Source: an uncultured Thermoleophilia bacterium (lineage in GTDB: Bacteria; Actinomycetota; Thermoleophilia; UBA2241). From it: a DNA stretch of 64,000 nucleotides. Location: positions 1,032,082 through 1,096,081 of the forward strand of contig CAWHHT010000005.1 in assembly GCA_963829205.1 (NCBI GenBank), read 5' to 3'. Under the pieces are notes generated by a model. The model was not told the origin of the DNA. It saw nothing but the letters and a program-made list of their open reading frames with translations, and searched no databases. Numbering within the stretch: the first letter of the stretch is position 1; every line of letters starts with the position of its first letter. The translations under genes and the position numbers were made by a program. Below, piece after piece: positions 7,672 through 20,000 of the stretch.

Positions 7672-9084
7672 TCATGCGGCGGCGTCCGGCAGCGGCACGC
7701 GTATCGTGACCTCCGAGCCGTGCTCGCTGCGCACCGCGAGCGAGCCGCGGAGGTCCTCCTCGACGAGCGTGCGGACGATGGAGAAGCCGAGGCTCCCCGA
7801 CGCGAGCAGATCGGCTCCGTCCGGCATGCCGCGACCGTCATCGCGCACGCTCAGCACGAGCTCGCTCGCGGTCCTCCCCAGCTGCACCTCCACGGCCCCG
7901 GCCGCGCCGGGCTCGAACGCGTGCAGCAGAGCGTTGTGCACGAGTTCCGTGAGCGCCAGGGCGAGGGACGTGGCCACGGCCGCGTCGATCTGGCCCAGGG
8001 AGCCGGAGACGCTCACCGCGATGCGGCCCTCGTCGCCGATGAGGCTGTCGCGCACGAGGGCGACCACCCTGCCCGCGACCTCCGAGAAATCGACGCACTC
8101 GTTGGTGGAATGTGCCAGCAGATCGTGCACCGTGGCCATCGAGGCCGCGCGTTCGGTCGCCTCGGTGAGGGCGCGGCGCACCTCGGCGCTGTCGCTCCGC
8201 CGCGCCTGCATGCGCAGCAGGGAGGCGATGGTCTGGAGGTTGTTCTTGACGCGATGGTGGACCTCGCGGATGGTCGCCTCTTTGACGTCGAGCTCGCGCT
8301 CGCGCCGGCGCTCTTCCGTGAGGTCTTCGACGAGCACGAGCACGCTCGAGCTCAGGGAGAGGGCGCGGTAGCCGAGGATGCGCCCCGCCACCTCGATCTC
8401 CGTCGCCACGGCGCCGGTGGCGCCCACGACGGGCGATATGCCGGCTCCGCCCCCGGGCAGCTCCGAGGCGCGCATGCTGGTCACGCGGCCCTCGACGCCG
8501 GCGATGCGCATGATGCTCACCGCGTTCGGCGACGCATAGCTGATGGAGCCGCGCGCGCCCACGCGCAGGAGCCCATCCCCGGGACTGCGGCTCGTCGAGA
8601 ACGGCTCACCGCTGCGCGCGTCCAGTATCGGTCCCGTACGCAGCGTCTCGAGAAGATCGCGGGAGCAGCCGATGAAGGCGTTCTCCATCCGGCTTGAAGT
8701 CGCGTCCAGCTGCTCGCCGTAGGTGCGCAACACGACGGCGTACGGCCGGGGCGCGCCGATCGGGAAGGCGTCGCAGCTGCGCGTCACGCCGCCCGTGGCG
8801 CAGCGCTTGGACCCTTCGACCGCATGGCGGCGCTCGACGGCGGCGTAGGCCTCCGGCTCCTCCTCGCGAGAGAGCACCTGGCCGACGCGGGAGGCTGGAA
8901 TGGGATCGGCGGCCGTGCTCGGGCGCGCGTCCGCGAGCACGCTGAGCAGGCCGCGCGCGTCCACGATCGCGAGCGCGGCGTCCCCGTACCCGAGATCCGC
9001 GACCAGCTGCAGATTATCGGCGACATTGGCAAGATGCTCGCGCACGTGCTGCGGGACGCGCGATGTCGGCGTAGTGCGAAGCAC
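7672..9084 (-). CDS. pdtaS: Sensor histidine kinase, PdtaS type (GAF/PAS + HisKA_2 + HATPase)
   Basis: H-box EVHHRVKNNLQTIASLLRMQ with ATPase motifs ELVHNALLHAF and DDGRGMP. A GTG at 9084 lies 4 nt after the upstream gene's stop. The exact start is uncertain. Confidence 0.85.
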   Translation of the reverse strand: MLRTTPTSRVPQHVREHLANVADNLQLVADLGYGDAALAIVDARGLLSVLADARPSTAADPIPASRVGQVLSREEEPEAYAAVERRHAVEGSKRCATGGVTRSCDAFPIGAPRPYAVVLRTYGEQLDATSSRMENAFIGCSRDLLETLRTGPILDARSGEPFSTSRSPGDGLLRVGARGSISYASPNAVSIMRIAGVEGRVTSMRASELPGGGAGISPVVGATGAVATEIEVAGRILGYRALSLSSSVLVLVEDLTEERRRERELDVKEATIREVHHRVKNNLQTIASLLRMQARRSDSAEVRRALTEATERAASMATVHDLLAHSTNECVDFSEVAGRVVALVRDSLIGDEGRIAVSVSGSLGQIDAAVATSLALALTELVHNALLHAFEPGAAGAVEVQLGRTASELVLSVRDDGRGMPDGADLLASGSLGFSIVRTLVEEDLRGSLAVRSEHGSEVTIRVPLPDAAA

Positions 9085-9088
9085 AGGC

Positions 9089-9907
9089 TCAGTATACGCG
9101 GGAGGCGAGCGGCTCAAGCGCCCGGTCCGAGAGGCGCAGCCACGAGTCGTAGCCTGCCGCCCGTGCCCAGGCGCGCGCCTCGGCGAGGTGCGCGCCCACC
9201 TCGGCCGCGGCGTGCGCGTCGGAGCCGAAGGTGACGGCGACGCCCGCCACGCGGGCACGCTCGAGGAGGCTCAGTGAGGGATACGGCTCCCCGATGGGAT
9301 GACGGTCGAGCCCAGCGGTGTTGACCTCGATCGCCATACCGGCCGCCGCGATGGCCCGGATCACCTCAAGCTCGAGGTCGCCCATGTCGCCGCGCGGGCG
9401 AAAGCCCCATTTCTTGGGGAGATCGAGATGGGCGACCACGTCGAACGCGCCGGTCTTGGCCGCTTCGATGAGCGTCTCGTAGTAGCGGCGCCAGAGGCGG
9501 TCCACGTCGCGCCAGCCCGCGGCCGCGCGGTTGTGCGATTCGTCGAAACTGAAGCCGTCGACGAAGTGCACCGCGCACAGGGCGTAGTCGAAGGGGTATG
9601 CCGCCAGCAGCTCCAGGATCTCTTCGGCGGCACCCGGCACATAGTCGGCCTCGACGCCGCAGAGGAGACGGATGCCCGGGTAGCGCGCCGCCGCCGAGCG
9701 CACCGCGGCCACGTACTGGCCGAAGTCCTCGCGAGGGCAGCAGGCGCTGTCCGCGAGGCATGCAGGCGTGAAGTGCTCGGCGAAGCCCAGCTCAGGCAGG
9801 CCCAGCTCCAAGGCGCGTTCGACGCAAGCGGAGATCCCGTCCGCACCGTCGGAGAACCGGGTGTGCACGTGGTAGTCGCACATGCCTGCCGTGCTGCCGG
9901 CTAGCAT
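9089..9907 (-). CDS. Histidinol-phosphate phosphatase, PHP family (HisJ/HisK type)
   Basis: MCDYHVHTRFSDG...EADY...HLDLPKK...GSDAH metal-ligand pattern of PHP histidinol phosphatases. The ATG at 9907 overlaps the upstream stop (ATGCTAG). An alternative ATG is at 9883. Confidence 0.8.
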   Translation of the reverse strand: MLAGSTAGMCDYHVHTRFSDGADGISACVERALELGLPELGFAEHFTPACLADSACCPREDFGQYVAAVRSAAARYPGIRLLCGVEADYVPGAAEEILELLAAYPFDYALCAVHFVDGFSFDESHNRAAAGWRDVDRLWRRYYETLIEAAKTGAFDVVAHLDLPKKWGFRPRGDMGDLELEVIRAIAAAGMAIEVNTAGLDRHPIGEPYPSLSLLERARVAGVAVTFGSDAHAAAEVGAHLAEARAWARAAGYDSWLRLSDRALEPLASRVY

Positions 9908-11106
9908 CCCTCGTCGCCCTCTGCCGCGATCGACTCGCGGAGTATGGCGAGACCCTCCGCGAGCTCCTCGCGTGTGATGGTCAGCGCCGGGAAGACGCGG
10001 ATCGCGTTTCCCTGGGTCCGGCGCACGAACAGGCGCCGCGAGAGGCAGCGAGCGTCGACTCTCGCGGCGCTCGCCTCGTCGCGGAGCTCGACGAGGAGCA
10101 GGAGCCCCGCGCCGCGGACGGCCGTGACGGCGCGCGGGTAGGCCTCAAGCCACGTGGTCATCTCCGCCAGCGCCCAGCGCCCGACCTCCGCCACGTGACC
10201 GGCGATGTCCTCGTCGAGCAGAACGCGCATGACGGCGCGAGCGACGGAGCAGGCGAGCGGGTTGCCGCAGTAGGTGCCGCCATGGTCCCCGGGCTCCAGC
10301 TTCTCCGAGACCTCCTCGGAGACGGCGAAGGCTCCCATCGGGAAGCCCCCGGCGATGCCCTTGGCCATCGTCAGGAAGTCCGGCCGCGCGCCGGAGCCGC
10401 TCACAGCGAACATCGGCCCTGTGCGGCAGAAGCCGGTCTGCACTTCGTCGACGATGAGGAGCGTCCCATTGGCTTTGCACAGCTCGGAGACCCCGGCGAG
10501 ATAGCCTGCGGTAGGGATCCGCACGCCACCTTCGCCCTGGATCGGCTCGACGATCACCGCGGCGACGTCGGCGTCGAGGGTCCCGCCCAGCCCCGCGAGG
10601 TCGTCGTAGCCAACGAAACGATACCCGGGCACCAGGGGAACGAACTTGTCGCGGTGAGCCGATTGTCCGGTGGCCGAGAGCGTGCTGAGCGTCCTGCCGT
10701 GGAAGCTGCCCTCCGTCGCGATGACCGCCCGGCGACCCGTCACCTTGCGGGCGAGCTTGATCGCCGCATCGTTGGCCTCGGCACCGCTGTTGGTGAAGAA
10801 CACGCGCGTCAGAGGAGACGGCAGCAGTTCCGTCAGCAGCGACAGCAGCGCCGCGCGAGCCGGCGAGTAGGTGAGCCCAGCGTTCGGGCCCTGGAGGATA
10901 CGCCCTCCCTGCTCGGCAAGCGCCGCGCGGATAGCGGGATGGGCGTGACCGATGGAGGTGACGCCCCAGCCGGCGGTCAGGTCGAGATAGCGACCGCCTT
11001 CCTCGTCCCACACGCGCACGCCGACGCCGCGCTCGATCGCGACCGGGATCTTGGCGAAGAACGGCGGCATGCACGCGTCCTCGATGGAGATGGTCTCAGC
11101 GCTCAC
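9901..11106 (-). CDS. Class-III PLP aminotransferase (acetylornithine/GABA aminotransferase-like)
   Basis: GHAHP, FFTNSGAEANDAAIKLAR, GSFHGRT, DEVQTGFCRTG and TMAKGIAGGFP motifs. A GTG at 11106 overlaps the hisA stop as GTGA. The N-terminal 72 codons of the listed ORF are Arg/Gly junk. Confidence 0.85.
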   Translation of the reverse strand: MSAETISIEDACMPPFFAKIPVAIERGVGVRVWDEEGGRYLDLTAGWGVTSIGHAHPAIRAALAEQGGRILQGPNAGLTYSPARAALLSLLTELLPSPLTRVFFTNSGAEANDAAIKLARKVTGRRAVIATEGSFHGRTLSTLSATGQSAHRDKFVPLVPGYRFVGYDDLAGLGGTLDADVAAVIVEPIQGEGGVRIPTAGYLAGVSELCKANGTLLIVDEVQTGFCRTGPMFAVSGSGARPDFLTMAKGIAGGFPMGAFAVSEEVSEKLEPGDHGGTYCGNPLACSVARAVMRVLLDEDIAGHVAEVGRWALAEMTTWLEAYPRAVTAVRGAGLLLLVELRDEASAARVDARCLSRRLFVRRTQGNAIRVFPALTITREELAEGLAILRESIAAEGDEGC

Positions 11107-11786
11107 GGGAGATCCGCCTCCGACCCGGCCGTGTAGACCGCCATGCCCACCACGGCGTCGACGCCCATCTCGTCGAGGGTCTGGATCTCGGCCCGCGTCG
11201 CGATCCCTCCCGCCGCGAAGAGCCGGCGCGACGTCGCGGCGCGAAGCCGCCGCACCGCCGCGAGAGGGATGCCCTCCATCAGACCCTCCGTGTCGATGTT
11301 GGTGTACAGAAAGCCGCCGCACCAGGGCTCGAGCGCCTGCATCATGTCGAAGGGCGCGATGGACGTGCGCTGCTGCCAGCCGGCTACAGCGACGTGCCCC
11401 TGCCGGGAGTCGAGCGCGAACACGAGGCGCTCCCGTCCCGCCGCGGCGGCCAGGCGCGCGGCGAAGTCGCGGTCGACGCCGTCCTCGCGCACGAGAGCGG
11501 ACCCCACGATCACCGCCTGAGCGCCCGCGTCGAGCATCGCCAGAGCCGCGTCGAGCGAGCGGATGCCGCCGCCGACCTGGCAGGGCAGCTCGCCGGCCAG
11601 GCGTGCCACCAGCGCGCGGTTGTCGCCGCTGCCCATGGCGGCGTCGAGGTCGATGAGCTGGACCAGCGGGTAGGCGGCGAAACGCTCCACCCAGGGTTCG
11701 ACGTCGTCGAACTCGAGCGCGACGTCCTTGCCGTGGACGAGCTGCACGACTTTGCCACCCATCAGGTCGATGGCGGGGATCAGCAT
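11103..11786 (-). CDS. hisA: ProFAR isomerase HisA
   Basis: [16 protein letters not shown]...QVGGGIRS...GGIATRAEI are typical HisA (beta/alpha)8 phosphate-binding motifs. The start overlaps the hisF stop. Confidence 0.9.
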
Positions 11787-12547
11787 GGCAACCTCACAGG
11801 GATACCGAGGGATTTGAGGAACCGCTTGAGATACTCCATCGACTCGATGCCGTAGTGGAAGATGGATGCCGCCAGGGCGGCGTCCGCGCGCCCCTCGCGG
11901 AACACGTCGCCGAAGTGCTCGGCGCCACCGGCGCCGCCGGAGGCGATCACGGGGATGCGTACCGCATCCGCGACGCGCGCGGTGAGCTCGCAGTCGAAGC
12001 CGGACTTGGTGCCGTCGCGATCCATGGACGTGAGGAGGATCTCGCCGGCGCCGCGCTGCTCGGCCTCGCGGACCCAGGCGAGGGCGTCCCGCCCGGTCGG
12101 CCGGCTGCCGCCCGCGCTCCAGACGTCCCAGCCGCCGCCATCCAGGCGCCGCTTCGCGTCGACCGCGACCACGACGGCTTGCGAGCCGAAGCGCGCGGCG
12201 ATCGCCTCGATGAGCTCCGGGCGAGCGAGCGCCGCCGAGTTCACTCCGACTTTGTCGGCGCCGGCCTCGATCACGGCGGCGGCCTGCGAGAGCGTGCCGA
12301 TGCCGCCGCCCACGGTGAACGGGATGAAGAGCTCGCGCGCCGCGCGGCTGACGACGTCGAGCGCCGTGCTGCGCCCGCCGCGGGTCGCGGAGATGTCGAG
12401 GAGCACGATCTCGTCGGCCCCGGATCCGCTGTGCCGGCAGGCGAGCTCCACCGGATCACCGGCATCGCGCAAGTCGCAGAACGAGACGCCTTTGACCACC
12501 CGTCCCCCGTCGACGTCCAGGCAGGCGATGATGCGTTTGCTCAGCAC
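11780..12547 (-). CDS. hisF: Imidazole glycerol phosphate synthase cyclase subunit HisF
   Basis: [17 protein letters not shown]...TVGGGI...DAK...SGGAG...[12 protein letters not shown] at 12547 overlaps the hisH stop (GTGCTGA). Confidence 0.95.
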
Positions 12548-13131
12548 GAGCAGAAGTTGTCGAGGATCGCGAGCCCGGCGTCGCCGGACTTCTCGGGGTG
12601 GAACTGCGTGCCGAAGAGGTTGCCGCGCTCGACCGCGGCCGTGTGCGGCGCGCCGTGAGTGCAGGTGGCTATGGTCTCGCCGACCAGTGGCGCGTAGTAG
12701 CCGTGCGTGAAGTACGCGTAGGTGCCCGAAGGCAGGCCGCGCAGCAGCCGGCTCTGCGCCCCGATCTCGAGCTGATCCCAGCCGACCTGAGGCGACTTCA
12801 CGTCCGCGGGGAACGCGCGGCAGCGGCCCCAGAAGGCTCCCAACCCCGCCAGCTCGGGGTCCTCGTCGGAGGCCTCGAAGAGCCACTGCATGCCGAGGCA
12901 GATACCGAGCACCGGCGTGCGCTCCGCGATGCGGCTCTCGATGATCGCGGTCAAGCCGCTGGCGGCGAGCGTCGTCGTCGCGCTGAAGTGGCCCACGCCG
13001 GGCACGATGACCCGATCCGCCGCGTTCACAACGGCCGGATCGCCGGTGACGACGCACTCGCGGCCGAGGTGGTCGAGCGCGCGCTGCACCGAGGTGACGT
13101 TGCCGGCGCCGTAGTCGACCACGGCGATCAC
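12541..13131 (-). CDS. hisH: Imidazole glycerol phosphate synthase glutaminase subunit HisH
   Basis: [15 protein letters not shown]...PGVG...GICLGMQ...QFHPEKS triad motifs. A GTG at 13131 overlaps the hisB stop as GTGA. Confidence 0.95.
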
Positions 13132-13733
13132 AGCAGGCCCTTGGTGCTCGGCAGCGTGTCCTGCAGCCGCGCGTCGATGCGGCAAGCCGCGCTCAGCGCG
13201 CGCGCGAAGGCCTTGAACAGCGCCTCGACCTTGTGGTGGCCGGAGCGGCCGTACAGCACGCGGACGTGGACGTTGGCGCGCGCTCCGCGCGCGAAGCCCT
13301 CGAAGAAGTCGGTGACCAGACCGCTCTGCAGGTCCCCCACGAGCTTCGCCCGTACCTTCGGCTCGACGACCGCCGCGCTGCGCCCGCCAAAATCGACCGC
13401 CGCCAGCGCAAGCGCCTCGTCCATCGGCATCAGGAAGCTGCCGGCGCGCGCGATGCCCTCCTTGCCGCCGAGCGCCTCATCGAACGCTTCGCCGAGGGCG
13501 ATGCCGACGTCTTCCACCGTGTGGTGCTGATCGACGTCGAGGTCGCCCTCGGCCCGCAGCTCCAGGTCGAAGCCGCCGTGGCGGGCGAGCAACTCGAGCA
13601 TGTGGTCGAGGAAGCGGATCCCGGTGGAGACCTCGTAGGCGCCGCGTCCTTCGAGGGCGAGCGTCAACGCGATGCTCGTCTCCGAGGTCCGCCGGTCGAC
13701 GCGGGCCGACCTCCCAGTGGTGGACGCCATCAC
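13128..13733 (-). CDS. hisB: Imidazoleglycerol-phosphate dehydratase HisB
   Basis: [11 protein letters not shown]...FLDHML...[14 protein letters not shown]...SGHHKVEA motifs. The start is the GTG at 13733 or the ATG at 13730, and both overlap the hisG stop. Confidence 0.95.
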
Positions 13734-14599
13734 CCGACCACCTTGTTGAGCGGGTACTCGACGATGCCCTCGGCCCGCGCCGCCTTGAGCTGCGGCAAGA
13801 CCGCCCAGGCCTTGGTCTCCTCGATCACCGTGTTCACGGCGACCCAGGCGCCGTCACTGAGCTCCGCCACGGTCGGCTTGTTGAGCGCCGGCAGCACGGC
13901 CAGCACCCCGTCGAGGTCGGCGCGGCGCACGTTGAGCATGAGACCCACGCGCCCTCTCGCCTCGAGGGCGCCGCCGAGCATCAGGGCGAGATCGCGGACC
14001 TTGGCGCGTCTGCGCGCATCGGCCCAGGAGGCGGGATTGGCGATCAGCTGTGTGCTGGACTCCAGCACGGTGTCGAGGATGCGCAGGTCGTGGGCTCGCA
14101 GCGAGCTCCCGGTCTCGGTGACCTCGACGATGGCGTCGGCGAGCTCAGGCGGCTTGAGCTCCGTGGCGCCCCACGAGAACTCGACCTCGACGGGTACGCC
14201 CTTGCCGGCGAAGTAGCGACGCGTGACCGCGACCAGCTCGGTGGCGATGGTGCAGCCGGCGAGGTCCTCGGGCTCGTGGAAGCGCGAGTCCCTGGGGGCC
14301 GCGAGGACCCACTGCACGCGGCCCCTGCTCTGCTTGGCGTAGGCGAGGTCGCACACGGTGGCCACCTCGAGGCCGCTCTCCATCACCCAGTCGAGCCCGG
14401 TGAGCCCGGCGTCGAGCACGCCGTGGGCGACGTAGCGCGCCATCTCCTGGGCGCGGATGAGCAGGCACTCGATCTCCGGGTCGCTCGTGGAGGCGTGGTA
14501 GGACCTGCCGCTCACGTAGACGTCGAGACCGGCGCAGGCCAGCAGCTTCAGAGTCGCGTCCTGCAGGCTGCCCTTGGGGATCCCCAGCTGCAGCTTCAT
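13730..14599 (-). CDS. hisG: ATP phosphoribosyltransferase HisG (long form)
   Basis: [20 protein letters not shown]...[12 protein letters not shown], with a C-terminal regulatory domain. The ATG at 14599 overlaps the hisI stop as ATGA. The upstream 128 codons of the listed 417-aa ORF are out-of-gene. Confidence 0.9.
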
Positions 14600-14949
14600 G
14601 GCGCCGCCTGCTGCGGTCCGGCGCCCGGCAGCTCCAGCCGCTCGGTGAAGCAGGTGGACGTGCCGTTGTGACAGATCTGGCCGTCGCCCTGCACCCGCAC
14701 GCGCAGCAGGAGCGCATCGCGGTCGCAGTCCGTGGTGATGGACGAGACGACGGCGAAGTTGCCGGATGTCTCCCCCTTGGTCCAGAGGCACTCGCGCGTG
14801 CGGCTCAGGAACGTCGCGAGACCCGTCTCCACGGTCTTCGCGAGCGCCTCCCTGTTCATGAACCCCACCATCAGCACCGCATCGCTGTCGGCGTCCTGAA
14901 GCACGACCGGCAGCAGGTGGCCGTGCTTCTCGAAATCGAGGTCGATCAT
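14596..14949 (-). CDS. hisI: Phosphoribosyl-AMP cyclohydrolase HisI (monofunctional, no HisE fusion)
   Basis: [26 protein letters not shown]...[10 protein letters not shown]...DCDRDALL...CHNG. The ATG at 14949 has AAAGGGGA 9 nt upstream. Confidence 0.9.
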
Positions 14950-14983
14950 GACGTCTGGTCCCCTTTGGCTCGGATGTGGGCAC

Positions 14984-15020
14984 AAAAAAAGCCCGCCTCA
15001 GCTTGTCGCTGCGGCGGGCT
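14984..15020 (-). terminator. Intrinsic terminator / attenuator hairpin upstream of hisI
   Basis: Minus strand reads AGCCCGCCGCAGC-GACAA-GCTGAGGCGGGCT (12 bp, one mismatch) followed by TTTTTTT. It ends about 35 nt before the hisI ATG. Confidence 0.75.
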
Positions 15021-15042
15021 TGACCTGAGAGAGTGCTTGCTT

Positions 15043-15117
15043 CTAGGTGCAGAGCTCCGCCGACGTGGGGGGCACGTGCTTGTGGTGATGGCGCTTGGTG
15101 TGCGTCAGCGGAGACAT
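15043..15117 (-). CDS. Candidate his-operon leader peptide (24 aa, [24 protein letters not shown])
   Basis: Unlisted small ORF with codons CAC...CAT CAC CAC AAG CAC, giving 5 His in 24 residues. It sits between a TTGACA/CATAGT promoter-like pair and the terminator. It has no Shine-Dalgarno, so it may be near-leaderless. Confidence 0.55.
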
Positions 15118-15126
15118 TGAGCAGGT

Positions 15127-15155
15127 ACTATGCGCGAGATCTGCGCCGCTGTCAA
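15127..15155 (-). promoter_or_regulatory. Candidate promoter of the his leader (-35 TTGACA, 17-nt spacer, -10 CATAGT)
   Basis: Read on the minus strand: TTGACA at 15155-15150 and CATAGT at 15132-15127. The leader ATG follows 9 nt after the -10 element. Confidence 0.45.
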
Positions 15156-15267
15156 TGGGAACTGTTGCACATTGCGAGCGCAGGGGTACTCAGTGGATGG
15201 GCGAACTAGGCGCCAGCAGGTTGACGCGCCGCGGACGTCTCGACCGTGGCAGGCAGAGGAGTCGACG

Positions 15268-15982
15268 ATGGGGGTCGATGGCTCGTTTCGCGATGGACGG
15301 TCGCTCTCTTTCCACGAGGGAGACACCGGGCTGTCCACGGTCCGTGACGAGTACGAGCAAGCCGTCGTCGACACGGACCAGGACCACGCCCTGGCCGTCC
15401 TGCAAGACGCGGTCGAGGCCGGCATGGGCTGAGGTCCTCGTGTCGAGATCGTCACGCTTCGCTCGACGCGAGTGCGGCTCTGACCGCGGCCAGTCGTCCC
15501 TGGCCCAGCACTTCATGACCTCGCAGATCGCGTCGAGAGCTACCGAGCTCCTCGTCGCTCAGTTCGAGACTCCGGCAAAGGCGATAGGCCGCGTCGTCAT
15601 CGGGACCGCGCAGGGCGACTTCCACGGCCTTGGCGCCCGCATCGTCGCGGGCTGCCTGCGGGCCTCCATGATCGACGTGGTCGACCTCGGGAGGGACGTG
15701 CCGCCGGGGCGTTTCGTCGACGCGGCCGTGGAATCGGGCGCAGGCGTGATCTGCGTGTCCTCGATGATGCTGCACACCGCTCGCGGGGCAAACGGCCCGG
15801 CGGCGGTGCGCAGGCTTCTCAGAGAACGCGAGCTGGAGCGTGACATCAAGATCGCCGTGGGCGGGGCACCCTTCCGCCACGATCCCGGCCTTTGGCAGGT
15901 CGTCGGAGCGGACACTTGGGCAGAGAACGGCCTCGCCGCGGGCAAGGTCGTCAACGGGTTGCTGCAGGGGGTGAGGCGGTGA
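15268..15982 (+). pseudogene. Corrinoid (cobalamin-binding) protein, MtaC/MtbC-like, apparent 1-nt insertion
   Basis: The N-terminal cap (YEQAVVDTDQDHALAVLQDAVEAGMG) is in frame 1 and ends at TGA 15430-15432. The B12-binding domain with DxHxxG (GDFHGLG) continues in frame 2 to 15982. The length is 3n+1. GAGGAG lies 7 nt before the ATG at 15268. Confidence 0.8.
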
Positions 15983-17006
15983 CGACAGGCATGGAGCGCC
16001 TCGAGGCCGCTGCGGGCGGCGGCATCGCCGACCGCATCCCGGTATTCTGCAACCTGCTGGATCAGGGGGCCCGCGCGCTCGGCATGCCTCTGCGCGAGTA
16101 CTACTCCAACGGCGAGCACGTGGCCGAGGCACAGTTGAAGATGAGCGAGGCCTACGGATACGACTGCCTCTGGAGCCTCTTCTACGTGGGCAAGGCGGCA
16201 GAGCTGCTCGGGTGCCGGAGCATCTTCTTCGCCGACGATGGGCCTTGAACGTCGGCGAGAAGGTCATCAGGACCTACGACGACATCCACAAGCTGGAGGT
16301 CCCCGCCGACGTGGCCGAGCATCCGGTGTTCGCGGAGTCGCTGGAGTGCCTGCGCATCCTTCGCCATGAGTCGGGCGGGCAGCGGCCGATCTGCGCCTAC
16401 CTGACCGCGTCGCTGACGCTGCCGGCGATCCTCATGGGCATGGACAAGTGGATCGAGCTCCTGCTCGGTGGTCCGGCCGAGGTGCGTGACGAGCTCCTGT
16501 CCAAGTGCTCGGAGTTCTTCCGCAAGGAGGCCAAGGCGTACCGTGACGCCGGCGCCGACGTGCTCCTGTACTCCAACCCCTTCGGCTCGCTGGACGTCGT
16601 GCCCGAGGGCGTGTTCGAGTCGCTCTCGATCCCGTGGATGGTGCGGGATCTCGAGGCCGACGGCACCGACGGAGTCGTGTACTACTGTGGCGGCGCGTGC
16701 CTCAACGATGTGCTCTCGCGCGTGCGCGCCGCGACCGGCATCGGGACCTACTACCTGAGCCCCTTCGACGATATCTCCGAGGCCAAGACGACACTGGACG
16801 ACGGGGCCATGGTCTTCGGGGTCATCAACGACATCCGCCTCGTCGACTGGACCGATGAGGAAATCGTCACCGACGTGCGCCGACTCCTGTCGGCCGGCAT
16901 GCCGGGCGGGCGCAATGGCTTCGGCACGCTCGTCATGCCGCTCGCCATCCCGGAGGCGCACATCCGCACGATGCTCCGCGCCGCATATGAGCTCGGCCGT
17001 GTCTGA
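15979..17006 (+). pseudogene. MtaA/CmuA-type (uroporphyrinogen decarboxylase-fold) methyltransferase, apparent 1-nt deletion
   Basis: The N-terminal part (...SLFYVGKAAELLGCRSIFFADDGP) stops at 16246-16248. The rest (NVGEKVIRTYDDIHKLEVP...YYCGGACL...) is in another frame to 17006. The length is 3n+2. A GTG at 15979 overlaps the corrinoid stop as GTGA. Confidence 0.8.
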
Positions 17007-20000
17007 CGAGCGGCTTGTAGACGATAGCCAGGGCGCCGTCGAGGAGCGGCTGGCCCGACTGGCGAGGGAGAAGTCCAGGCTGCAGTTCGCGGTGTACGTC
17101 ATGGATCGCATCGGCACCGCCTCCAGCCTCGAAGCCACCGTCCATGATCTCCTGCAAGTGATCGTCGACGCCTTCGGCGGGTCGGATGCGATGCTGTATT
17201 ACTTCTCCGGGGACGGCGTCTTCCGCGCCGACGTGCACGGGCCACTGTGAGCCTGGACGCCGTGGACGACCTCGCGGCAAGGCAGCCGAGTCGCTCCACC
17301 CCGCCAAGCGCCGGCATGCCCTGTCCGACACCAGGATGCTGACGCCTGAGTTCGGTGAGGCCTGGGATTGGGCGCTTCCTCTGGTCGCCGGTGACAGACT
17401 GGTCGGCGTCCTCGTCATGCGGGACACCCACGCCGCGCCGGAGGAGATCGAGCTGGACCTGCCCCCACTCCTCGCTCACGCGGCCCTCGTACTGCACAAC
17501 CAGATCCTCGAGCACTTGCACTTCGAACGGGCGCGCCGTCTGGCCGCGATCGTGGAATGCTCGGACGACGCCGTCATCGGCAAGACGCTCGACGGTGTGG
17601 TCACGAGCTGGAATGCCGGCGCGGAGGTCATCTACGGCTTCAGCGAGCAGGAGATGCTGGGGCAGCCGGTCTCCAGGCTCGTGCCTCCCGACCGGCTCGA
17701 CGAGATCCCGGAGCTCCTTGCCAGGCTGGCGTCTGGCGAACACGTCGAACACTACGAGACGGAGCGTCGCCGCAAGGACGGCGGGCTGATCTACGTCTCG
17801 CTGACCATATCGCCCATCCGTGACGCCGACGGCACTGTGGTCACTGCTTCGACGATCGCCCGCGCGTGAAGACGAGGCCAACGTTGAGGAGTGCGCCGCG
17901 CCCAACCGTGCACTTCGAGCTGTGAGCACCTGCAGCCAGAGCCGTGAGGCGGCGCCGAGAGTCACGAGCTCAAGGACAGCTGCCGCGTGATCTGCGACGA
18001 GGCCGGGACGCGCATAGACGGGTCGGCGAAACCGTAGGCGACGATAAGAGTGGCGCGCGGTGCTAGCGGGCGCGACGTCGGCTACGACGCCGCTGCGACG
18101 ACCTGGGCCGACGAACCGCGCGGGCGCGGACCCGTCGGCACCGCGATCCGTACCGGGCAGGCGTGCGCGGTGCTGGACTTCGCCAGCGACCAAAGAGCTG
18201 AGCTCTGGCGCGAGCAGGCCCTCGAGCGCGGCTTCCTCTCGGCGATCGCCCTTCCGCTCCGAAATGGAGACGACACCCCCTTCGGCGCGCTCGCCATCTA
18301 CTCCGGGAGCACCGGGTCCTTCACCCCGACGAGGCGCGGCTGCCCGGCACTCGCCGTCGACCGGCGTTCAGATCCACCTCGAAGCGCGCGCTGACTCGAG
18401 GCGGCGGAGGAGCAGCGCAGGAGCGTACGTCGACCTGCTCGAGAACATGGAGCGTATCGACCAGGTGATACGTCAGCAGGGAGACGCGGAAGAGATGCTT
18501 CACGGCGTGCTGGAGACCGTGCAGGCGATATTCGACTGCGACCGCACCTGGCTTCTCTACCCGTGCGATCCAGGCGCGCCTTCCTTCCGCGTGCCGGTCG
18601 AAGTCGCCAAACCCGAGTACGTCGGCCCGGGCGGCACGCACGTGGACGTGCCGATGGAAGCCGGCGTAGCCGACACCCTGGAGGCCGTGCTGGCCGCGGA
18701 CGGCCCGTTGCCGTTCGCGAACGGCACCGAACGGCCCGTCGACCCGCTGGCGGCCAAGCGCTTCGGGGTCCAGTCGCAGCTGCTCATGGCCGTCCATCCG
18801 AGAGTGGGCATGCCCTGGGTGTTCGGAGTTCACCAGTGCTCCCATCCGCGCAGGTGGACAAGTCGCGAGCTCACCGAGTTCAGGGAGATCGGTCGCCGCA
18901 TCGCGGACGGCCTGAGCAACGCTCTCATCCTCAGTGATCTCCACGTGAGCGAAGCGCGCCTCGCGACCGCGGTGAGCGAGTGGCGCACCACGTTCGACGA
19001 TGAGCGACTCCGTCGCCCTGCTCGACTCTCAGCATCGCTTCGTGCGCTGCAACGCGGCGACCAGCGAGTTCACCGGTGTCGCAACCGCCGACCTTGTCGG
19101 GCGCGACTGCTGCGAGCTCTTCCGCTGCGGCGCGGACGACTGCGGCGACTGCCCCGAGCGGCGAGCCCGCAGCAGCATGAAGGTGGAGTCAAGCATCATT
19201 CATGACGGAGACCGCTGGCTGAACGTCAGGTTCCACCCACAGACCGACGACGAAGGTCGCTTCAGCGGCGGCGTCCACACGGTGAGCGATATCACGGAGC
19301 TCAAGGAGACGGAACACGCGCTGCGCGAGAGCGAGACGCGCTTTCGCTCTCTGTTCGAGGACGCGCCGACGGCGATGGGTGGAGAAGGAACTCCGGTGGA
19401 GCCCGTGCTGAACGCCTGGTGGCCGCCGGCGTGCAGGACATCGCGGTATCTTCGCGCCCTCGACGAGCACCGGAGTGGGACTGGAGCGCGCTCGAAGTCA
19501 ATCGCGACGCCCAGAAGCTCTTCGGTGCGGATGACAAGGCCGATCTCATCGCCCACGCCGACGACCTCTCGGGGACATCGCAGATCGATGAGATGGCCGT
19601 GGTCTGGGCGGCGTTTCTGGCCGGCGAGCGCACGGCCAGCTACGAGGATGCCGGCGTCTCGCTCGACGGCAGGCGCCTGCAGGTTCTCGAGACGGTCACG
19701 CTCGCGCCGGGCAGCGAGGACACCTGGGAACGCATCTACCTGGACGACGTCGACATCACCCCCCTCAAGGACGCCCAGACGAGACTGGAGGAGAGTCTCG
19801 CGCGCCTGCAGACGATGACGGAGGAGGTGATCCGTGCCATCGGCGCCATCGTCGAGGTGCGCGATCCCTACACCGCGGGTCACGAACGGCGGGTGAGCGA
19901 GCTCGTCACCGCGATCGCCAAGCAGATGGGCTTCGATGAGGAGTCGGTCTCCGGCATGGCGGTAGGAGCGCTCCTGCACGATGTGGGCAAGATCAGCGTG

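Follow-up and report, generated by a model that had tools for sequence, protein, structure and literature searches.

Introduction

Bacteria control their histidine biosynthesis (his) genes in diverse ways: leader-peptide attenuators are known from Proteobacteria, T-boxes from Actinobacteria, and both T-boxes and HisR from Firmicutes (PMC9413887, PMC4833913, PMC2965389). In the enterobacterial hisL leader (Rfam family RF00514), a short open reading frame (ORF) with His codons is combined with alternative antiterminator and terminator hairpins, and the terminator lies just before the first his gene (PMC9413887). Further His leaders, with three to five consecutive His codons and terminator and antiterminator hairpins, were predicted in Firmicutes (PMC9413887, PMC2965389). 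For the Acidobacteria, a survey from 2010 noted that hardly any of the predicted attenuators had been given a function (PMC2965389). Here, we analyse the 318 nucleotides (nt) upstream of hisI in a 64-kb stretch of contig CAWHHT010000005.1 (64,000 nt, hereafter the window), where an earlier reading of the DNA alone, the original prediction, had proposed a ribosome-mediated His-leader attenuator in front of the his operon.

Our results support this proposal. Lack of conservation in relatives would have refuted it by its own terms, and we find that relatives retain the hairpin, the alternative pairing, and an ORF rich in His codons. Because the same arrangement is conserved in more than 40 related Acidobacteriota, we regard the element as very probably (at about 85%) a classical leader-peptide, i.e. 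ribosome-mediated, transcription attenuator, in which charged tRNA-His would set the output of the his operon, and as a member of a family conserved in Acidobacteriota. This assessment builds on comparative sequence analysis and on folding models.

Results

A His-rich leader ORF and a terminator precede hisI

The elements named in the original prediction are all present on the minus strand (Table 1). They include a promoter-like pair, TTGACA and CATAGT with 17 nt in between (15155-15127), an ORF of 24 codons that is missing from the ORF list of the window and has His at codons 6, 10-12, and 14, a GC hairpin with seven U before hisI, and a Shine-Dalgarno sequence for hisI itself, whose ATG lies about 35 nt past the T-run. 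The promoter pair has 10 out of 12 matches and is the only sigma-70-like site that a consensus scanner finds in positions 9000-18000, where 0.3 are expected from shuffled sequences. The hairpin, AAGCCCGCCGCAGC-GACAA-GCUGAGGCGGGCUU (15021-14989), has a folding energy of -25.9 kcal/mol and overlaps the run of seven T. A simple consensus terminator scanner did not call the hairpin at these positions, presumably because its pattern disallows a mismatch within the stem. Terminator energies were thus computed with ViennaRNA in place of the scanner.

The locus stands out in several ways. When both strands of the 64 kb were searched for mini-ORFs of at most 45 codons with an amino-acid run and then a T-run, this leader was the single one found. 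The 177-nt leader folds into a structure that is more stable than expected from dinucleotide shuffles (z = -2.4). The 318-nt region is a divergent promoter region: the adjoining upstream gene points the other way, so the terminator does not belong to it. Downstream, the his genes are all on the same strand and tightly packed or overlapping in the ORF list, and they are probably transcribed as one unit.

The original prediction had suggested scanning the region with the His-leader and T-box covariance models of Rfam, and neither matches it. The whole window has no match in Rfam 15 at the gathering score, and relaxing the threshold to E-values of up to 10 in positions 14800-15400 revealed no RF00514 (His_leader), no T-box (RF00230), and nothing else of relevance. 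Six leader peptides searched against Pfam and NCBIfam at E-values of up to 10 matched no family, with the restriction that sensitivity is poor for low-complexity peptides of 24 residues and that the presence of a his-leader model in these libraries was left unchecked. We found no description of an acidobacterial his leader in the full-text literature, a search whose coverage leaves out most subscription-journal papers, so that an earlier mention is possible.

The arrangement is conserved in Acidobacteriota

We searched for HisI among 185,579 species-representative genomes, considered 80 matches, and added a scan of metagenomes. The nine best matches are all from Acidobacteriota (Terriglobales, Acidobacteriaceae; 55-68% identity), and the rest of the 80 are mostly from Bacteroidota. 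None of the 80 is labelled as an actinobacterium. The leader family, too, is shared with Acidobacteriota. The framing of the locus as a his operon of actinobacterial type, which was part of the original prediction, is thus not supported. Our placement of the locus in Acidobacteriota builds on the closest relatives of its HisI and HisG and on this leader family.

The leader layout was found before hisI-hisG in 42 distinct further loci, for a total of 44 loci, and every one with a taxonomic label is from Acidobacteriota. Mini-ORFs of 21-28 codons with a His run lie upstream of hisI in 11 acidobacterial genome loci and in 32 metagenome loci. All Acidobacteriota loci in which hisI heads the cluster and at least 300 nt of upstream sequence are available carry such a mini-ORF, of 20-28 codons. 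Among the HisI matches from Bacteroidota, no locus has a His-run mini-ORF at this position. An nhmmer profile built from the alignment of 42 sequences hits each of the 44 loci exactly once, and its only hit in the window is on the minus strand, at 15158-14984. In 41 distinct sequences, whose HisI identities span 55-86%, the ORF is conserved together with its frame, length, and spacing to promoter and terminator. In the closest relative, a metagenome locus (L081) whose HisI is 86% identical, the CATAGT box is unchanged, the ATG likewise follows after 9 nt, and the leader reads MTPMARNHQHRHHHVPHTSAEPCA.

The order leader-hisI-hisG is kept in all loci that reach far enough downstream. Two other Acidobacteriota loci (L052 and L042) have hisI at the end of a hisB-hisH-hisA-hisF-hisI cluster and no leader directly before it. 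The attenuator thus seems tied to the arrangement in which hisI and hisG come first and is not universal in the phylum. The sources of these two loci (L052:279-3288 and L042:46-3309) are an uncultured Acidobacteriota metagenome-assembled genome (MAG) and a Pyrinomonadaceae MAG.

One member of the family is divergent (L058:2872-2984). Its leader, MSASHHHHGMGGRSLF, is shorter, its terminator, CCCGCCGG/CCGGCGGG, differs in sequence, and its segment equivalent to the antiterminator strand described below, GGCGGGCG, matches its own terminator arm. There are further candidate in-frame starts upstream of this leader, and the spacing between promoter and start may differ in that lineage.

We also came across another kind of His leader, MHHHHHSL(H/P)SEW..., in Perlabentimonas gracilis (L046:950-1140), a member of Bacteroidota, and in an unlabelled metagenome contig (L157:434-620). 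The two are nearly identical to each other, have a strong terminator with seven to eight U, and are followed about 30 nt on by hisG and then hisI. They are unrelated in sequence to the acidobacterial family, with no nhmmer match.

Terminator and antiterminator share an arm

The original prediction proposed two alternative pairings, and both are found. In the antiterminator, CGGCGGAGCT (15062-15053) pairs with AGCCCGCCG of the terminator 5' arm with one bulged A. In the minimum-free-energy fold, which also contains the terminator, the early codons, CUCCGCUGACG, pair with CGUCGGCGGAG (15065-15055). We refer to the early-codon strand as segment 1 and to the strand that can choose between both partners, CGUCGGCGGAGCU, as segment 2. 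Antiterminator and terminator are mutually exclusive, as they share the 5' arm, and folds with a masked ribosome switch between them.

A terminator with a T-run is present in 42 out of 42 relatives (-19 to -27 kcal/mol), and its pairs are formed in 90.9% of the alignment cells. We folded each relative with a ribosome masking the centre of the His run and with the RNA truncated ahead of the 3' arm of the terminator. Under these conditions, the terminator 5' arm pairs with segment 2 in all 42 sequences. On average, 11.4 of the 13.8 nt of the arm are paired, compared with 6.8 in shuffles, and the mean ΔG is -24.2 kcal/mol, compared with -17.9 in shuffles and with an average of -23.3 for the terminator itself. 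In the window, 11 of the 14 arm nucleotides pair with segment 2.

The antiterminator was then counted, pair by pair, on a MAFFT alignment that was not fitted to any structure. The fraction of paired cells is 88.9%, and shifting the partner columns by one to three positions lowers it to 35-43%; because the structure strings were taken from a single member (L001), the fractions of cells paired are somewhat inflated. Six pairs change on both sides, and the covariation score was reached by none of 500 shuffles. An inner helix connects the region of the stop codon with the bases immediately ahead of the terminator arm, and all four of its pairs have changed on both sides across the family (GGAU:AUCC versus ACCU:AGGU). 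RNAalifold, run on the alignment, reported the terminator, one 3-bp hairpin, and nothing else. As this program is unable to display alternative folds, explicit structures were tested by pair counting.

Segment 2 lies at -19 to -6 nt from the stop codon in the window and at about -22 to -10 in relatives. In nearly all sequences, this places it where a terminating ribosome would cover it and a ribosome in the His codons would not, under an assumed size of the ribosome footprint. As for the pairing between segments 1 and 2, an 11-bp helix in the window, a comparable one is found in 40 of the 42 relatives.

Signatures of selection on codon meaning and on RNA sequence

The codons of the leader show two opposite signatures. 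In the His run, codon positions 1 and 2 have an entropy of 0 across the family and position 3 of about 1 bit (180 CAT and 125 CAC). With the first two positions fixed and the third free, selection acts on the meaning of the codons. The family has 5-10 His codons per leader. In the codons of segment 2 (-8 to -4 counted from the stop), conservation peaks at the third positions, whose entropy of 0.28-0.44 bit is lower than that of position 2. This is the mark of selection for the RNA sequence rather than for the peptide.

All members of the 42-sequence alignment have TTGAC in the -35 box, and the -10 box conforms to TAnnnT. The distance between the -10 box and the start codon is 9-10 nt in 30 of the 42 sequences and ranges from 6 to 12 nt once the start of the closest relative is corrected. 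The Shine-Dalgarno duplex at the leader start has an energy of +0.7 kcal/mol in the window and a family mean of -0.7, whereas the mean for hisI is -6.25; energies of -6 or lower are found at 1 of 41 leader starts and at 24 of 41 hisI starts. Weak pairing at the leader and strong pairing at hisI, throughout the family, make the near-leaderless arrangement a conserved trait. The original prediction had flagged it as unusual, and it is no quirk of this locus. We prefer the term near-leaderless because a typical transcription start, about 7 nt past the -10 box, would leave a 5' untranslated region of 1-4 nt.

The spacer between ORF and terminator contains a further conserved motif, AGCA(C/A/G)T, in 33 of 41 leaders, about 12 nt before the terminator 5' arm. 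It is retained even in a subgroup whose spacer is about 15 nt longer, and GCAC occurs in 27 of 41 spacers compared with 9% of shuffled ones. The attenuator model assigns no function to this motif, which could act as a signal for polymerase pausing or provide an additional partner for the 5' half of segment 2.

A proposed three-state model of the switch

The locus thus has a leader ORF with clustered His codons, a terminator before hisI, an antiterminator that shares an arm with it, and a geometry in which the ribosome can mask segment 2, which are among the features of the leader-peptide attenuator class. Transcription would begin a few nucleotides past the -10 box, so that the transcript starts with the leader AUG or no more than about 1-4 nt ahead of it, and translation of the leader would do without a Shine-Dalgarno sequence. 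With ample histidine, the ribosome would reach the stop codon and cover segment 2 (6-22 nt upstream of the stop). The 5' arm would then be free, the terminator would form with its U-run, and transcription would end about 35 nt upstream of hisI. Under a shortage of charged tRNA-His, the ribosome would stall in the His codons (10-14 in the window), with segment 2 exposed and held apart from segment 1. The exposed segment 2 and the region of the stop codon could then pair with the newly made 5' arm in a two-helix antiterminator, and the polymerase would read through into hisI-hisG-hisB-hisH-hisF-hisA. In the complete absence of translation, segment 1 is predicted to pair with segment 2, which would lead to termination.

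Folding of the leader RNA from the window gives the corresponding structures. The free RNA adopts the segment 1:2 helix together with the terminator (-53.8 kcal/mol). If a ribosome occupies His10-14 before the 3' arm has been transcribed, segment 2 pairs with the 5' arm and ACCU with AGGU. If the ribosome occupies the stop codon, the 5' arm is free and the terminator forms.

Layout of the locus

Table 1. Features of the leader and of the downstream his genes in the window, from 5' to 3' along the minus strand
Feature	Position	Strand	Remarks
-35 box TTGACA	15155-15150	-	Direct reading; TTGAC invariant in 42 aligned leaders
-10 box CATAGT	15132-15127	-	17-nt spacer from the -35 box; aligns with TATACT/TATATT of the nearest genome relatives; identical in L081
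Leader ORF, 24 codons and stop	15117-15043	-	ATG at 15117, TAG at 15045-15043; 9 nt between -10 box and ATG; no Shine-Dalgarno sequence
Segment 1, CUCCGCUGACG	15113-15103	-	Predicted to pair with segment 2 in untranslated RNA (anti-antiterminator); minimum-free-energy fold
Regulatory His codons	His6 15102-15100; His10-12 15090-15082; His14 15078-15076	-	Direct reading
Segment 2, CGUCGGCGGAGCU	15065-15053	-	Alternative partners: segment 1 or terminator 5' arm (antiterminator)
Inner antiterminator helix	ACCU 15048-15045 : AGGU 15026-15023	-	ACCU includes the first base of the stop codon
Spacer motif AGCACU	15037-15032	-	Conserved among relatives
Intrinsic terminator	15021-14984	-	5' arm 15021-15008, loop 15007-15003, 3' arm 15002-14989, T-run 14990-14984
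hisI Shine-Dalgarno AAGGGGA	~14965-14959	-	About 10 nt 5' of the hisI ATG (14949)
hisI coding sequence	14949-14596	-	Phosphoribosyl-AMP cyclohydrolase, NCBIfam NF000768, 129.6 bits (cutoff 126); first gene presumed regulated
hisG (long form), hisB, hisH, hisF, hisA, class-III aminotransferase, PHP-type histidinol phosphatase	14599-9089	-	NCBIfam and Pfam matches; rest of the presumed regulated operon

In the three relatives that we checked (L001, L005, and L065), hisG is directly followed by hisD, whereas the window continues with hisB-hisH-hisF-hisA. The his operon of the window contains neither hisD nor hisC, and a search for a hisD homologue across the 64 kb found none. After hisA, it continues with the class-III aminotransferase and the PHP-type histidinol phosphatase (9089-11322, minus strand). 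The aminotransferase (ArgD-like, PF00202) could be a non-orthologous replacement of HisC or a gene of the arginine pathway.

The divergent upstream gene (15256-15982, plus strand) looks frameshifted. An ORF with a good Shine-Dalgarno sequence, GAGGAG, and high G+C content at third codon positions (GC3) spans 15268-15432. From about 15440, the high GC3 and a Pfam B12-binding domain continue in another frame (ORF 15095-15982, plus strand). Either this gene for a B12-binding-domain protein has become a pseudogene, or its sequence contains an error.

Discussion

Points that weigh against an attenuator

Several of our observations weigh against the interpretation of this element as a leader-peptide attenuator, or against parts of it. 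The outer helix of the antiterminator is mostly conserved and does not covary. Swapping segment 2 between lineages hardly alters the energy of the duplex (-19.3 kcal/mol with their own partner and -18.9 when swapped). All lineages share a GGCGG/CCGCC core, which explains why the swaps reveal no general co-evolution, and we thus claim no covariation for the outer helix. Real compensation is restricted to the inner helix and to the divergent members L065 and L058, both of which clearly prefer their own partner. The helix between segments 1 and 2 is the weakest part of the pairing model: it is paired in only 71.9% of the cells, its position varies by subgroup, and its covariation is not significant. 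The leader in the window also has fewer and less contiguous His codons (five, with a longest run of three) than most relatives (median of seven). Moreover, many of the 42 sequences are close kin, so that our counts overstate the number of independent events.

The folding model also has its difficulties. For the full-length RNA, the conformation with the terminator is favoured by about 13 kcal/mol also under starvation, 3' of a stalled ribosome, so that read-through would have to be decided kinetically. Classical attenuators likewise decide read-through kinetically. In addition, most of segment 1 (nt 5-15 of the ORF) is 5' of the stretch that a ribosome stalled at His10-14 would occupy, and in the computed folds segment 1 pairs with segment 2 around the masked ribosome. 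Segment 1 being mostly outside the footprint, the exclusion of the 1:2 helix during a stall would be purely steric.

Alternative explanations

The terminated transcript or the His-rich peptide could have a role of its own, in addition to attenuation in cis or instead of it. The RNA might act in trans, like the small RNA rnTrpL, or the peptide might bind metal. In Sinorhizobium, both the RNA and the peptide of the trp attenuator have been described to act in trans (PMC6614838, PMC7298713), and the spacer motif that our model leaves without a role, as well as the fairly conserved tail of the peptide (A-M-S-V-S-A-x), would fit such a function. We nevertheless find it improbable. The conservation of the tail is best explained at the level of RNA, since third codon positions are more conserved than second ones, there is one element per locus, always directly before hisI-hisG, and no Rfam family of small RNAs matches. 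Control could also be exerted on translation, if stalling in the His mini-ORF opened a structure that hides the ribosome-binding site of hisI. Leaderless sensory ORFs rich in Cys codons work in this way in mycobacteria (10.1101/834739), and in some attenuators a hairpin that sequesters the ribosome-binding site stands in for the terminator (PMC9413887). Here, however, all 42 sequences have a canonical GC-rich terminator (at the energies given above) followed directly by a T-run. The start of hisI is about 35 nt past this T-run in the window, and in relatives the first long ORF begins about 0-60 nt past the extracted terminator region. Finally, the folds of the window leave the Shine-Dalgarno sequence of hisI, which is downstream of the terminator, unpaired with leader elements. 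Translational control is therefore, in our view, highly improbable.

The remaining explanations take the His codons as incidental or the whole ORF as fortuitous. Sensing of tRNA by a T-box, or control by an antiterminator protein or a repressor, would follow the example of the T-boxes that run his genes in Firmicutes and Actinobacteria and of the HisR repressors of Firmicutes (PMC9413887). Yet, there is no T-box match in the window, the leader of about 135 nt is too short for a T-box, and the His codons can hardly be incidental because their positions 1 and 2 are invariant across the family. We give this explanation very little credit. Short ORFs and GC-rich hairpins are common in a genome of about 70% GC, and the His run of the window is modest, which might suggest a chance ORF that happens to lie beside an ordinary terminator or insulator between two divergent genes. 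This idea is effectively refuted by the comparative data, in which ORF, frame, length, and spacing persist across 41 distinct sequences. Also, the terminator cannot serve the divergent upstream gene, and no other such mini-ORF exists in the window. Its likelihood is close to nil.

A leader-peptide attenuator remains our preferred reading, and within it one may ask whether the conserved distance between promoter and start codon is itself functional. If the 70S ribosome loaded on the 5' end once this emerges from the polymerase, a start codon 9-10 nt past the -10 box would hard-wire the coupling of transcription and translation, with no need for a Shine-Dalgarno sequence and perhaps none for a classical pause hairpin; the AGCA(C/A/G)U motif would then be a polymerase pause or checkpoint. 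We consider this design doubtful. If true, it would define a mechanistically distinct class of leaderless-coupled attenuators, common to several phyla rich in leaderless mRNAs.

Significance and comparison with known systems

In summary, the element is best explained as belonging to a family of His-leader transcription attenuators of Acidobacteriota with a conserved near-leaderless start, which falls outside RF00514 and would work like it. The mechanism of attenuation is itself ordinary, leaderless leader peptides have already been reported in Deinococcus and mycobacteria, and our understanding of attenuation as such is unchanged. The finding is neat and useful for annotation, and will not surprise a specialist. 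It would nonetheless place the Acidobacteriota, an abundant and poorly studied phylum of soils, on the short list of those with a defined amino-acid attenuator. It would provide a clean example of leader-peptide attenuation reinvented with an unrelated sequence that escapes RF00514, and it suggests that near-leaderless translation is functional in Acidobacteriota. The alignment of 42 sequences could serve as the seed of a new RNA family model, with which these his operons would be annotated correctly and gene callers would no longer overlook the mini-ORF.

The resemblance to enterobacterial hisL concerns the architecture, i.e. a short ORF with His codons, alternative antiterminator and terminator hairpins, and a terminator just before the first his gene. 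It also concerns the signal: hisL senses charged tRNA-His through the position of the ribosome (PMC9413887), which in our family is a prediction. The differences are many. There is no detectable similarity in sequence or structure, RF00514 being silent at E-values of up to 10. The acidobacterial leader lacks a Shine-Dalgarno sequence and starts 9-10 nt past the -10 box, its His codons are interrupted by Arg or Lys codons, and the first regulated gene is presumably hisI and not hisG. Another parallel in kind is found in the His-leader attenuators of Firmicutes (the Bacillus cereus group, Peptostreptococcaceae/Lutispora, and Erysipelotrichales), which are also lineage-specific, were also predicted by comparative genomics, and are also missed by RF00514 (PMC9413887, PMC2965389). 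They belong to another phylum and are unrelated in sequence, and a conserved near-leaderless start is not among the traits reported for them in the relevant sections of these studies.

Precedents for the start of the leader come from elsewhere. In Deinococcus deserti, 14 putative leader peptides for attenuation, associated with genes of amino-acid biosynthesis and of tRNA synthetases, lie at the very 5' end of transcripts (PMC4007540), and leaderless initiation is joined there, as proposed for our family, with terminator-based attenuation. Their starts were mapped by differential RNA sequencing (dRNA-seq) at the AUG/GUG or 1 nt before it (PMC4007540), whereas ours are placed by the spacing of the promoter. 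The main text of that study contains no histidine case (0 occurrences of the word 'histidine'; PMC4007540). In the Cys ribulon of mycobacteria, the supply of one amino acid is sensed by stalling at its tandem codons in a short leaderless ORF, and the downstream operon is controlled accordingly (10.1101/834739), much as we propose for the acidobacterial leaders. The poly-Cys ORFs act by sequestration of the ribosome-binding site (10.1101/834739), whereas the acidobacterial family has a canonical terminator with a U-run and is built around another amino acid.

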